A stretch of DNA of 21,738 nt from a virus (lineage: Duplodnaviria > Heunggongvirae > Uroviricota > Caudoviricetes). The notes beneath the pieces are model-generated. The model saw only the letters and a program-made list of their open reading frames with translations. It searched no databases and had not been told where the DNA came from. The number at the start of each line of letters is the position of its first letter. Positions within the stretch are counted from its first letter, which is position 1. The position numbers and the translations under genes were made by a program. Of the stretch, positions 16,893-21,738 are shown in pieces. Where the stretch lies: IMG/VR virus record IMGVR_UViG_2537561977_000011. One strand, written 5' to 3'.

Positions 16893-17389
16893 GGGATTTC
16901 CCCGCGGGCCAGTGCGTTCTTGACGTCGCTGATCCGCGCCTCGTCGTTAGACGGGAACGTCACCAGACTGACTTCCCAGAGGTCGATTTCTTTCAGCAGA
17001 AAGGCTTCTTTGCTCCGGTCGTATTCCCAGTCTTTCAGGACGTACCCAATAGAAAGGCCGGTTAACGAACCGGCCTTCATGTGTGCATGTGCACGTTTTG
17101 CGAGGGGATCATCATCAATAAGCAACCGTCCCCTGACGTAAAGCCCGACATCGTCTTCCTTCATTTCGGTGTAAACACCGATGGGTTCATCCATGCGGTG
17201 CTGCCAGAGCAGCGCAGGTAACGCTTTTCTGTCACTCCACGCCCGCAGGGAAGCAGCAAATGCCCCGGACATCACCACATCATCGTGGCTGTCCTTTACA
17301 CCAAAGACGGAGCCATACCCTTCAAACTCACCGGAGTCACTGACAGATTTCAGACTCAGCGGTACATCAAGACGTTGTTTCGTCTGCAT
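16889..17389 (-). CDS. HK97-family prohead protease, C-terminally truncated by the IS10-like insertion
   Basis: Lies between portal and capsid genes; ends ...ARGEIP then a stop inside the IS end. Probable start ATG 17389 (AAGGA upstream); the ORF-track start at 17425 has no ribosome-binding site. Confidence 0.8.
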   Translation of the reverse strand: MQTKQRLDVPLSLKSVSDSGEFEGYGSVFGVKDSHDDVVMSGAFAASLRAWSDRKALPALLWQHRMDEPIGVYTEMKEDDVGLYVRGRLLIDDDPLAKRAHAHMKAGSLTGLSIGYVLKDWEYDRSKEAFLLKEIDLWEVSLVTFPSNDEARISDVKNALARGEIP

Positions 17390-18608
17390 TGGCGTTATCC
17401 TTCTGCTTACCGGCTTTACTGCCATCGGAGGGTTTCGTGGTCATGTTCATCGGTGTGAGATAGACATCCCCACCGGGACGCGGATTCATATCTTCCAGGT
17501 CGCGGCAGTCATTGGGAGAGTAAATCCCCCAGTTAATCCCGGTGGCGTAGGCTTCAAAACGGGATTTCATATCCCCGCGCAGTAACGCCCCGGCGTTAAA
17601 TTTGGCGTAAAACTTCCCCTGTTTGCTCTCCCTGACCAGCCCTGTATTGATCCGTTGTTCAATACGGGTCAGATACGGCACAAGGGAATAGTTGATAAAT
17701 CCGAGCCCCAGCTCTTCAATATTGTTGAAAGTGGCGCGATCGGTGTTCTGCACCATGTGCAGCGGCACGCGGAAAAGACGACAGATTTCTTCCAACTGAA
17801 ACTTGCGGGTTTCCAGGAACTGGCTGTCCTCGGCATTCAGTGCCACCGGCTTCCAGTCCAGCCCCATTTCCAGAATCATCGGACGGTGCGCATTACCCAG
17901 CCCAAGATGACGCTCCTCAAAATCCCTCTTCATGCGCTCATAAGCATCCGGCGTGAGCTTTTGTTCCGTGCGCAACACACCGGATGTCACCGCACCATTA
18001 CCAAACAACCTGGCACCGTGCTCCTCGGTTGCCGCTGCCAGTGAAATGGCCTCGCGCGCATATGCAATGGGATTCAGCCCGACCAGTCCGTCCAGCGTCA
18101 GGGTGCGCACATGCCAGATTTCATCCTGGGTCAACACATCCACGGAACCATCCGGAAACGTCACCTGATAAACCGGCTGCCACTGGCTGTTCAGCTTCGG
18201 TTCCACACAGCCCGGATCTATCGGAAGAAGCTCCACAACTTCCCCCAGCGCCTTCACCTTGTAAGCGTAAAAATTCCCCCGCAGACACAGGCAGACGATA
18301 ACCAGCTCCCAGAATTCCTGCGGCGTCATGTAGCCATTGGGTTTTGCTGAAATCAGCTTATGCAGCCGTTCATCCACCGCCCGTGTTTTAAGGGTGCCGC
18401 TGATTTTGTAGAGACTGCAGGGCAGCATACCAACAGACTCAGCCAGCACCCTGACGCAGGAATAGACCGCCGTCAGCCGCATGGCCCGCTGGCTGCTGAT
18501 CCGCTTTCCGGTATAGGTGTCGTATGACAACCCCAGCTCTTCCGCAAGCATCCCGGGCGTTGTGACGGGGGTGTTATTTTTGCGTTGAAAAAGCCCCTGG
18601 AAAAACAT
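17367..18608 (-). CDS. portal protein, HK97 family
   Basis: 413-aa ORF directly downstream of the terminase genes; GGAGGTGA upstream of ATG 18608..18606, which overlaps the upstream stop (TAATG). Confidence 0.85.
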   Translation of the reverse strand: MFFQGLFQRKNNTPVTTPGMLAEELGLSYDTYTGKRISSQRAMRLTAVYSCVRVLAESVGMLPCSLYKISGTLKTRAVDERLHKLISAKPNGYMTPQEFWELVIVCLCLRGNFYAYKVKALGEVVELLPIDPGCVEPKLNSQWQPVYQVTFPDGSVDVLTQDEIWHVRTLTLDGLVGLNPIAYAREAISLAAATEEHGARLFGNGAVTSGVLRTEQKLTPDAYERMKRDFEERHLGLGNAHRPMILEMGLDWKPVALNAEDSQFLETRKFQLEEICRLFRVPLHMVQNTDRATFNNIEELGLGFINYSLVPYLTRIEQRINTGLVRESKQGKFYAKFNAGALLRGDMKSRFEAYATGINWGIYSPNDCRDLEDMNPRPGGDVYLTPMNMTTKPSDGSKAGKQKDNANADETTS

Positions 18609-18790
18609 TACTCACCTCCGGAGGCGACCCGGTGACCGCGATCGAGATAACGCGCAACCAGCCACGACCAGCACAGACACAGCGCCCCGGCAACAACAAA
18701 ACCTGCCGGGGGATAAATCAGCCATGTGCCATACGACAGCAAAAGCGCCCCCAGCACGCCCACCAGTGGCGTGAGAATTATCAGAAACAT
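18608..18790 (-). CDS. small membrane protein (60 aa, two predicted transmembrane helices) between terminase large subunit and portal
   Basis: ATG 18790 with GAGG 6 nt upstream, 11 nt after the terL stop; its stop TAA overlaps the portal ATG; hydrophobic segments [24 protein letters not shown] and [18 protein letters not shown], charged C-terminus. Confidence 0.5.
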
Positions 18791-18801
18791 AATGACCTCG
18801 G

Positions 18802-20559
18802 TTAAAGCGAGCGAATACCAACGCTGACCAGATGCTCAGACAGATCCGGCTCCGGTTCACCGCCATTGACCAGCATCCGGCTCATTGCTGTAAACATCGC
18901 AACAGGGCCGTCGATTTTGGCTTCCGGCGTGGATTTGTTCGGGAAGATATTGTCGTTTTTGTCCGGTTTCACCGTAACGTTAGACATCATCCAGTTCATG
19001 ACCGGGTGATTACTGTGATGGAAACGCCCGGCATAGACCAGTGATTCCGTTTCCTTCATGGCCTCTGACAGATTGCGGACCGTCTGCGGAACTTCCACCA
19101 GCGGTATACCTTCTTCAGCCAGCGCCAGACTGAACTGCATTGCGCTCCACGGGTCAAATCCCAGTTCCCTCAGGTTTTCACCGCCAATCCATTCCAGTAA
19201 GTCACTTTTTATCTGAGCATGATCGATAACATCACCATCCGTCAGAATCAGCTTATCCATCTCCGCCCACTTCCGGTAAAGTTCTGCCTGCTGCCGCGAG
19301 CATCGTTCCAGCCGTCCTTCCGGAAGCCAGAATTTAAAATCGGCATGAACATGCCCGTTATCCGTTCGCCAGAGTTTTGCCGCCGCACAGATATCAATCT
19401 TATGAGCAAGGTCAACGCCGACCCACATGGGATACGTTTTCAGCTCATGTCGTGGGGCAATGTATTCGCACTTCTCCCACTTAATCATGTCCATCCAGGC
19501 AGACTCTGCTGTTACCCACACATTCATGTGTTTGGTAAAAAAATTCACCCGCGCAGAGACCTGTTCTTTCGCTTTTTTCGCCAGGCGACGCAGATCATCC
19601 CAGCGTTTACAGATGCCCAGGCCGGGATTCGCTTTCTGCCAGACCGTTTCATCAAACGGATCATCTCCCTCATCGAGGGTGTAAATAATCGCAAAGTAGG
19701 AGTCGTCTTTTACCGCGCCCTCCACGTCGCTGTTATAGCCACGCAATACCTTGATGGCGTAATCACGCTGCTCGTAACAAATCCCTTCCTTGTTAAACCC
19801 TGCCGTGGTGATACCAAATAAAAGGGACTGCAGACGGGCACCGGTTGCCGTTTCCAGAACGTCCCACACGTCACGGGTTTTATGTGCATGCAGCTCATCA
19901 ATAATGGCGCAGTGGATGTTCAGACCATCCAGGTTGTTTGCATCTGAAGAAAGCGGTTCAAATTTTGATGCGCTCTGCTCCTGATAAATCGCCAGCTTGT
20001 TGAAATCAAACAACCGCCCGAGTGTCGACCGGGCTTTTCTGACCATATTTTTGGCGTCTTCAAACACGATTCTGGCCTGGTCACGCGTGGTTGCGGCTGA
20101 ATACACCTCAGCCCCGCCTTCACCATCTCGCCCCCGTCATATACAGACCGATACCTGATGACAGGGTTGATTTTGCGTTTTACGGGCGACTTCGTTGTAC
20201 GCTGTCCGGAAACGGCGCACCATCACCGGGCGTCCGCTGCCATCGCTGCGCATGACAACTTCCCCGGTCTCTTCATTCACCAGCGGAATGACAAAACCAA
20301 AAATATTAATGAGGATAAACACATGCCAGTCCATCAACTCAATGGGCTGACCTGCCAGCGCCCCTTTTACATGGGGCACAAATTTGTAGAAATTCAGGAT
20401 GTGCTGCGCACGGGGTTCACTGAAATAAATCCCCCGCTCTTCGCCGTACTTCAGATCATCAAGAAAACGCTGGCAGGCCAGACGGACAAATTCACCAGCG
20501 ACAATTTCTCCTGCAACAACACGTTCGGCGTAGCGGATCCCGTCAGCCACTTTTGCCAT
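18802..20559 (-). pseudogene. terminase large subunit, disrupted: P-loop region out of frame between two compensating homopolymer indels (A-run 20178..20181, G-run 20131..20135) with an in-frame TGA at 20137..20139
   Basis: ORFs 20137..20559 and 18802..20106 are in the same frame, separated only by TGA. The window frame reads ...EVARKTQNQPCHQVSVCI*RGRDGEGGAEVYSAATTRDQ, whereas the alternative frame across the 47-nt interval reads KNAKSTLSSGIGLYMTG, a Walker-A segment. Confidence 0.85.
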
Positions 20560-21041
20560 CAGTCTCTCGCTTTTAAAAGTTCTGCCAGCAGATCAACATC
20601 ATCCGGTCCGGCGATATTTACTTTCGCCCGGCTTGCCGGTGACATACCAAATTCTGCAAGCATCGCCCGGATCCGCTTCCAGGCATCCGCTTTCATCGCA
20701 GCAGCCGGGTGTGCCTTAATCAGCACATCACCGTTCTGCGTTTCCGTGCGGTAGGTATAACCCTCAACATCGAGGGTTTCGCAGTGATGCCGGTATTCGG
20801 TGTAGGCTTCCACCAGCAACTCGAGTGCACGCGCATCAAGCTGAGAAATGATCCCTTCCGCATTCAGCTCTTCCGCCATTCGCCTGAACCAGTACTTTCC
20901 CTGCGCCCCTAAATGCTGCGGAATTTTAGGGAGACCTTTTTCGTCCTTTTTAGCGGTTTTTTTGGCGTCTTTAACGGGACGCTTTGAGGGATTGCCTCGT
21001 ATCAAATGCAGGCGTGGCGGGGTTTTCGGGGGTCCTGACAT
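20559..21041 (-). CDS. terminase small subunit, P27 family
   Basis: 160-aa ORF with GNPSKRP near the N-terminus and FGMSPASRAK near the C-terminus, typical of P27-family TerS; stop TGA overlaps the terL ATG (ATGA). Confidence 0.8.
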   Translation of the reverse strand: MSGPPKTPPRLHLIRGNPSKRPVKDAKKTAKKDEKGLPKIPQHLGAQGKYWFRRMAEELNAEGIISQLDARALELLVEAYTEYRHHCETLDVEGYTYRTETQNGDVLIKAHPAAAMKADAWKRIRAMLAEFGMSPASRAKVNIAGPDDVDLLAELLKARD

Positions 21042-21109
21042 AATCGATTTTACCTATCAATCGCTTGATCGCATTCCCAAAAAAAAGTTTTCGAACCTGC
21101 GGCGATGCG

Positions 21110-21170
21110 AGGAAGGGTTGGCGGGCGGTCCCGGACAGCCAGGGCTGCAGGGATTTGACCCGCCCCTCCC
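21110..21170. promoter_or_regulatory. candidate cos / terminase recognition region: GC-rich imperfect inverted repeat (GGCGGGCGGTC ... GACCCGCCCC) in the HNH-terS intergenic space
   Basis: Arms at 21120..21130 and 21157..21166 separated by about 26 bp; G-rich arms resemble lambdoid cohesive-end sequences; location matches where cos lies in HK97-like genomes. Confidence 0.35.
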
Positions 21171-21188
21171 TACAAGTGAGAATAATTA

Positions 21189-21539
21189 TCACCTGATTCG
21201 TTCGCGCGCTGTTTTCGCTTTATGGCAGGGCCAGCACAGACTCTGCAGGTTGCTGTCTGCGTCTGTTCCGCCATGCGCTTTCGGGATGATGTGGTCGACG
21301 GTTTTCGCCTCGCTCACCACACCGACACGCAGACACAACTGACACAGACCTTTATCGCGCTTCAGAATACGGGCACGAATCACCGTCCATTTTGAGCCAT
21401 AGCCACGCTGGTGGCGGCTCAGTCCGCGCTGGTGCTGCACCCAGCCTTCACCGCGATGCTTATCGCAGTAACCCGAACTGTCTGTGGTTGTACCTGCACA
21501 TCCACGCTTACGGCAGGCACGTGGGATTAGTGATGGCAT
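21189..21539 (-). CDS. HNH endonuclease (packaging-associated)
   Basis: 116-aa ORF; GAGG 7 nt upstream of ATG 21539; N-terminal Cys4 cluster (CRKRGC...CDKH) and C-terminal HNH motif DHIIPKAHGG...N...LCWPCH; directly upstream of terS. Confidence 0.85.
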   Translation of the reverse strand: MPSLIPRACRKRGCAGTTTDSSGYCDKHRGEGWVQHQRGLSRHQRGYGSKWTVIRARILKRDKGLCQLCLRVGVVSEAKTVDHIIPKAHGGTDADSNLQSLCWPCHKAKTARERIR

Positions 21540-21582
21540 AAATACCTCATACCCTGCGAAATGTTTACCACGATAAAAAGGC

Positions 21583-21738
21583 TACTTAATGCACTGAGTG
21601 CGGATATACTCCTGTGCCCCTTCCAGTTGCATCTGCATCGTCATCAGCCGCTCTCTGAGGGTGAAATAATCCCGTTCAGCGGTGTCTGCCAGTCGGGGGC
21701 TGGTTGCGATTATCCACGCCGGAGGCGGTGGTGGCTTC
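21583..21738 (-). CDS. Rz-like i-spanin, C-terminal part (5' end beyond window), with Rz1-like proline-rich coding overlapping in another frame
   Basis: Open frame to TAG 21585..21583 reads ...SPRLADTAERDYFTLRERLMTMQMQLEGAQEYIRTQCIK*, matching the lambda Rz C-terminus as recalled; the same frame upstream reads KPPPPPAWI (Rz1 hallmark) while a different frame reads EATTASGVDN (Rz-like), implying a frame switch near the C5 run around 21695. Edge coordinates may be off by 1. Confidence 0.55.

Follow-up and report, generated by a model that had tools for sequence, protein, structure and literature searches.

Organisation of the prophage and its terminase locus

The DNA analysed here (the window) corresponds to the full length of contig ADUP01000036.1 (21,738 nt) from the draft genome of E. 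coli LT-68 (GCA_000188815.2), a strain given as ETEC in one paper. The region is a prophage, in which an HK97-type head module is combined with a contractile tail and Mu-like baseplate genes. The head genes follow the order HNH endonuclease, terminase small subunit (TerS, PF05119), terminase large subunit (TerL), a 60-aa ORF, portal, S78 protease and capsid, so that TerL lies between TerS and the portal gene in a head module of tailed-phage type. The positions of these and the other features are collected in Table 1.

Since a tail gene and the gene for the prohead protease are both split by insertion sequences (IS), and these insertions are backed by other assemblies, the prophage is defective whatever the state of TerL. 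The sequence-only reading had made the loss of infectious particles hinge on TerL; this cannot be upheld, because the IS in the protease gene and the IS1 in the tail gene disable the prophage regardless.

The insertion point in the protease gene is a 12-bp near-palindrome, GGGGAAATCCCC (15588..15599 and 16892..16903), which looks like an insertion hotspot. The ISEc60-like element occupies it in the window and in contigs L025 and L036, a different IS end is found at the same point in L035, and L028-L030 and L034 possess a GAA to TAA nonsense change at the codon directly after the site. The truncated 166-aa protease was considered as a marker of the IS insertion and rejected as unspecific, because it also arises from this nonsense allele and from contig ends. 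At the other end of the contig, identity to FDAARGOS_944 drops to 92.8% over window positions 1..887, which makes the tail-fibre end mosaic.

Table 1. Positions of genes, insertions, TerL fragments and single-base differences in the window
Feature	Position	Strand	Remarks
IS1 in tail gene	888..1655		9-bp duplication; also in CP065611.1, absent from FDAARGOS_944
A7 to A6	7972		intergenic; private indel
delG	10369		tail tube gene; private indel
A7 to A6	10677 (run 10671..10677)		tail tube gene; private indel
T6 to T5	14721 (run 14716..14721)		capsid gene 14195..15420, minus strand; split into 267 + 141 aa
IS4-family ISEc60-like element in prohead protease gene	15596..16893		12-bp target duplication GGGGATTTCCCC
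Portal protein gene	17367..18608	-	413 aa, intact; downstream of TerL
TerL C-terminal fragment	18802..20106	-	434 aa, GTG start; rest of ATPase domain and nuclease domain
Lesion 2 (+1)	20129	-	extra C on plus strand (G on coding strand), GGGGGC[G]AGATGG; intact relatives without it; from alignment
+C	20129		TerL; private indel, same change as lesion 2
Out-of-frame stretch	20130..20177	-	Walker A and next helix (NAKSTLSSGIGLYMTG; intact residues 128-143); from translation and HK97 alignment
TGA stop in shifted frame	20137..20139	-	from ORF listing and translation
TerL N-terminal fragment	20137..20559	-	140 aa, GenBank EFZ58392.1; residues 1-127 as in intact TerL
Lesion 1 (-1)	20178..20181	-	A4 run on coding strand (T4 on plus strand); A5 in all relatives; from alignment
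T5 to T4	20181		TerL; private indel, same change as lesion 1
Terminase small subunit gene	20559..21041	-	P27 family, PF05119; directly upstream of TerL, stop/start overlap
HNH endonuclease gene	21189..21539	-	upstream of terminase genes
+G, GGTTGC[G]ATTA	21708		3' part of lysis gene; no covering relative has the extra G

In the ORF listing, TerL occupies the minus strand as two separate ORFs of 140 and 434 aa. Three-frame translation of this strand gives, in the gene's own frame, RTAYNEVARKTQNQPCHQVSVCI, a stop and then RGRDGEGGAEVYSAATTRDQ; the same frame runs through NEVARKTQNQPCHQVSVCI to the stop and continues with RGRDGEGGAEVYSAATTRDQ. The Walker-A stretch NAKSTLSSGIGLYMTG is readable solely in another frame, which across the P-loop gives NAKSTLSSGIGLYMTGARW between two stops, while the window frame runs into the TGA at 20139..20137. 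The final 13 residues of the 140-aa fragment (TQNQPCHQVSVCI) are P-loop codons read out of frame. Both the ORF listing and the translation confirm the starting observation of the sequence-only reading, namely a P-loop out of frame with an in-frame TGA.

A Pfam search of the 140-aa fragment returned zero matches. The 434-aa fragment enters TerL_ATPase (PF03354) at profile position 57 and covers nearly the entire profile of the C-terminal, RNase-H-like TerL_nuclease domain (PF20441, E = 2e-52); for an intact homologue, the values are 1.9e-27 for TerL_ATPase and 1.9e-51 for TerL_nuclease. Walker B with the catalytic glutamate (IIDE, residues 219-222) is present in the 434-aa fragment, D221 and E222 being encoded at 19899..19894. 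As assembled, the Walker-A P-loop is therefore not in the same ORF as the remaining ATPase domain, as it would be in an HK97-like TerL.

Two single-base lesions and the intact gene

The lesions were mapped by alignment to intact 1758-nt genes, those of E. coli RMDEC465 and phage vB_EcoM-606R7, and then to many more. The window differs from the intact homologues by exactly two single bases. On the coding strand, lesion 1 changes CGT AAA AAC to CGT AAA ACG and lesion 2 changes GGGGGCAGATGG to GGGGGCGAGATGG; they are 52 nt apart, and lesion 2 brings back the original frame. The deposited allele can be written as A4 plus GGGGGCGAG, its intact counterpart as A5 plus GGGGGCAGA. The base missing from an A run, which had been deduced from the letters alone, is real in this sense (A5 to A4), and the extra base does compensate for it; however, this base adjoins the G run rather than lying inside it. 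The run is G5 in the window and the intact genes alike, and the additional G comes after the C that borders the run. Intact genes are hence A5/G5 and not A5/G4 as had been supposed.

Reversal of both edits yields an ORF of 1758 nt which is identical at 1758/1758 nt to TerL from another sample (Logan SRR13627069, contig L025), and chance is therefore no issue. The repaired gene encodes ARKNAKST at residues 125-132, as does the intact TerL of L025. Set against known terminases, as had been proposed, the repaired gene has a P-loop that aligns with that of HK97.

Contigs from other samples were found via the window's small terminase and truncated protease: L024 (GCA_012769395.1), L025 and L036 (SRR32438455). 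The shared lineage was defined by the IS junction sequence, in which GGGGAAATCCCC is followed directly by TGAGGAATCCCCAGAAAACAAG; in L025 and L036 this junction is identical to that of the window, that is, the same IS lies at the same site of the protease gene. Over about 16870..21738 of the window (4.85 kb), L024 and L025 show 0 substitutions and three 1-nt indels (20129, 20181, and 21708). TerL is a single 585-aa ORF in L024 (1319..3076), L025 (1279..3036) and L036, and the exact 585-aa protein occurs on at least 996 contigs. Independent assemblies of the sister lineage, among them the complete FDAARGOS_944, one from NCTC and several that Logan rebuilt from public runs, all have the A5 run. 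The frame conserved in homologues is accordingly that of a single unshifted TerL ORF, not the window frame, and on this point the suspicion raised from the sequence was justified.

The double-lesion allele was then sought elsewhere. Among about 15 billion proteins, the 140-aa product was read on one contig only, that of the window, and a 146-aa product ending GARW, as the extra G by itself would give, was not found in this collection. An identical 121-nt stretch occurs in 0 of 5426 complete E. coli genomes, where the best match reaches 98.4%. Exact-pattern searches for either lesion in metagenome contigs gave 0 matches, in a search run without a positive control. The A4 allele had 0 matches in contigs of species-representative genomes, where the lesion-free 48-nt core also had 0, so this null result is uninformative. 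In a Logan re-assembly of SRR040460, which apparently holds the reads of LT-68, the TerL region was not reached by look-ups with the 140-, 421- and 434-aa fragments, TerS, or the protease. The lack of a 140-aa record for this run mildly favours an artefact, or could reflect a contig break.

Single-base differences along the contig

Compared with the nearest complete genome, CP065611.1 (L039), with which it has IS1 in common, the window shows 3 substitutions, an 18-bp difference in repeat number and eight 1-nt indels over about 19.8 kb. At 7 of the 8 indel sites, every covering relative has the non-window state, and we call these indels private. Four of the seven, including that in the TerL A5 run, are A/T runs of 5-7 bases shortened in one direction, and the share of runs affected grows with length (1 of 67 five-base, 2 of 11 seven-base and 1 of 2 eight-base runs). 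The remaining three (10369, 20129, and 21708) involve no change in run length, and the context G-C-[G]-A is common to both insertions. At 7340..7358, in the gene for the DNA circularization protein, the window exceeds both FDAARGOS_944 and CP065611.1 by an in-frame 18 bp, made up of two additional repeats of the 9-bp unit AGAAGGTAA.

The tail tube gene (357 nt; about 10294..10700, minus strand) contains two private 1-nt deletions, which result in a product of 124 aa versus 118 aa in the relatives. The 124-aa form is found only in LT-68 and the re-assembly of SRR040460. The latter is 100% identical to window positions 1922..15623, four private indels included, and because the re-assembly has them too, these four represent read-supported differences rather than assembler slips. 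The capsid split caused by the T5 allele is found in SRR040460 and also in SRR354113, there on a contig without the protease IS, and at least this one private indel may be real.

Several prophages which are only about 90% identical also have a split capsid gene with this 141-aa C-terminal piece. The T run of the capsid gene is a recurrent site either of frameshift or of error, and at this level of identity the recurring split is unusable as clean evidence for or against error. A general rule that all homopolymer differences are errors was abandoned, since T8 versus T7 at 4939..4946 reflects common natural variation. In this run, close to the 3' end of a baseplate gene, T7 and T8 correspond to products of 358 and 351 aa; both forms are common, and the 358-aa form occurs on 187 contigs, Shigella sonnei among them.

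Origin of the two lesions

We suggest, with a probability of roughly 0.78, that both frameshifts are sequencing or consensus (assembly) errors in the 2010-era draft of LT-68. An undercalled A5 homopolymer would have cost one base just ahead of the Walker-A lysine codon, and a spurious G call after GGGGGC would have added one base 48 nt downstream. Their combined effect would be to shift precisely the P-loop with its helix out of frame and to uncover the TGA, and the true gene would most likely be an intact 585-aa HK97-type large terminase.

An artefact is favoured because TerL is intact, at 0 substitutions, in contigs that share the IS junction, because the allele is unique to one draft contig, and because the private differences of this contig are mostly indels. 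The balance of 7 indels versus 3 substitutions, and of 3 versus 0 against the same-junction contigs, is a signature of indel-prone sequencing. We infer error rather than mutation from the observed lesion positions, their uniqueness to the contig and the intact gene in otherwise identical copies, and our view of the platform is of the same kind: GCA_000188815.2 was presumably sequenced by 454 pyrosequencing, and no sequencing platform was found in the literature on strain LT-68, its accessions or its run.

Several observations weaken this explanation. The four private indels reproduced by re-assembly are read-supported, which fits a systematic read error and also real mutation; the extra G at 20129 is not a typical error of homopolymer length; a rate near one consensus indel in 3 kb is high by the standards of pyrosequencing too; and the capsid T5 allele is also present in SRR354113. 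Of the two explanations that the sequence-only reading offered, the assembly error is preferred; lesion 2 does not alter the length of the G run as that reading had assumed.

The main competitor, which we consider unlikely, is that both indels are real and private to LT-68. TerL would then be a genuine pseudogene, its P-loop destroyed and a TGA stop introduced during the decay of an IS-disrupted prophage. The deposited sequence does contain both indels, four other private indels are reproduced from the apparent LT-68 reads, and selection on TerL is relaxed, since the protease gene and one tail gene are split by IS. Moreover, this prophage family shows at least three other, independent inactivations of TerL: by the G6 change in the FDAARGOS_944 lineage, by a change at window position 19305, which leaves 418 + 152 aa (L021-L023, L039), and by a split into 160 + 421 aa (L018, L020). 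Against this, the 3 indels and 0 substitutions over 4.85 kb, and the 7 indels and 3 substitutions contig-wide, are far from a substitution-dominated spectrum. Spontaneous mutation in E. coli is substitution-dominated, indels amounting to about a tenth of base substitutions in mutation-accumulation studies. The occurrence of two lesions 52 nt apart in TerL and of another two in the tail tube gene, which is only 357 nt long, also argues against real mutation, as does the absence of the allele from every other assembly.

A sequential version of real mutation, which we regard as somewhat more doubtful still, supposes that a +1 beside the G run, a hotspot struck in a sister lineage as well, arose first and that a second-site -1 in the A5 run followed, forming an intragenic frameshift-suppressor pair in a decaying gene. 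The -1 would return the Walker-B and nuclease part to the original frame; the TGA would still block full-length TerL, and the internal GTG could start no more than a fragment lacking the P-loop.

It is highly improbable that LT-68 truly carries the +1 of the FDAARGOS_944 lineage (A5, G6), with the draft having miscalled G6-C as G5-C-G and dropped an A. The window and FDAARGOS_944 are equal in length over GGGGG[CG/GC]AGATGG and differ there only by a swapped dinucleotide, and FDAARGOS_944 is the top match among complete RefSeq E. coli genomes (99.8%). However, the protease IS junction of LT-68 is shared, at 0 substitutions, with contigs having G5 and an intact TerL, while in the G6 lineage ISEc60 sits in the portal gene and the sheath gene, and substitutions (such as that at 20669) set this lineage apart. 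A real G6 frameshift shared with FDAARGOS_944 is therefore largely rejected. Finally, programmed recoding, in which two ribosomal frameshifts or stop read-through would yield full-length TerL, can practically be dismissed: it has in its favour only that the two shifts compensate each other, whereas in the gene's frame the sequence at the first site is T AAA ACG, which does not fit the slippery heptamer X XXY YYZ, the shifted arrangement is confined to one contig, and hundreds of homologues, phage genomes included, have TerL in one unshifted frame.

Taken at face value, the contig suggests a terminase inactivated by two frameshifts that neatly compensate each other, and its seven private single-base indels also split the capsid and tail tube genes. 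This calls for caution, and pseudogene or prophage-viability calls from this and similar early drafts are not trustworthy without the reads. None of this is new biology; should the indels be real, TerL is an ordinary private pseudogene in an IS-disabled prophage.

Comparison with known terminases

The closest counterpart is the same prophage's TerL in its intact form (585 aa; UniRef A0A0K4WX61_ECOLX group), which becomes identical to the window gene after the addition of one A and the removal of one G and has the same flanking TerS, portal and IS junction. Relative to it, the A run of the window is A4 rather than A5 and an additional G follows GGGGGC, so that the ORF is split into 140 + 434 aa.

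The TerL of FDAARGOS_944 and NCTC UGFA01, annotated as a "frameshifted" pseudogene, belongs to the same prophage family (99.8% identity), and its lesion lies at most 2 nt from lesion 2 of the window. In contrast to the window, FDAARGOS_944 has a single G5 to G6 change that leaves 146 + 434 aa, an intact A5, and IS in the portal and sheath genes. The G6 allele is present in FDAARGOS_944 (L001/L004), NCTC (L006), the drafts L007 and L008 and the Logan re-assemblies L009 and L010; the 434-aa product is read on 19 contigs and the 146-aa product recorded on 11, so that the G6 lineage comprises at least 11-19 contigs. Because it is present in many independent assemblies, this allele is real. Among phages with genome records of their own, Escherichia phages vB_EcoM-606R7, phi467 and Evi have TerL at 95.8-97.4% nucleotide identity as one uninterrupted annotated gene, and in 606R7 no IS occurs in the TerS-portal stretch, the only one inspected.

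The only solved relative recognised by sequence is the large terminase gp2 of HK97 (PDB 6Z6D), a distant homologue matching the intact TerL over residues 122-559 (E = 5.6e-35). With the TerL_ATPase and TerL_nuclease domains of the intact homologue, this match bears out the initial assignment of the gene as a terminase large subunit. The motifs correspond in Walker A (ARKNAKST in the intact TerL, ARKNGKTG in HK97), Walker B (IIDE and ILDE) and the nuclease (VGVDLA and AGLDLS). The gene neighbourhood is also of the same kind as in HK97, with HNH, small terminase, large terminase, portal, S78 protease, and an HK97-fold capsid. Unlike in HK97, the second Walker-A glycine is replaced by alanine in the TerL family of the window, TerS is of the P27 type, and the tail is contractile with a Mu-like baseplate.
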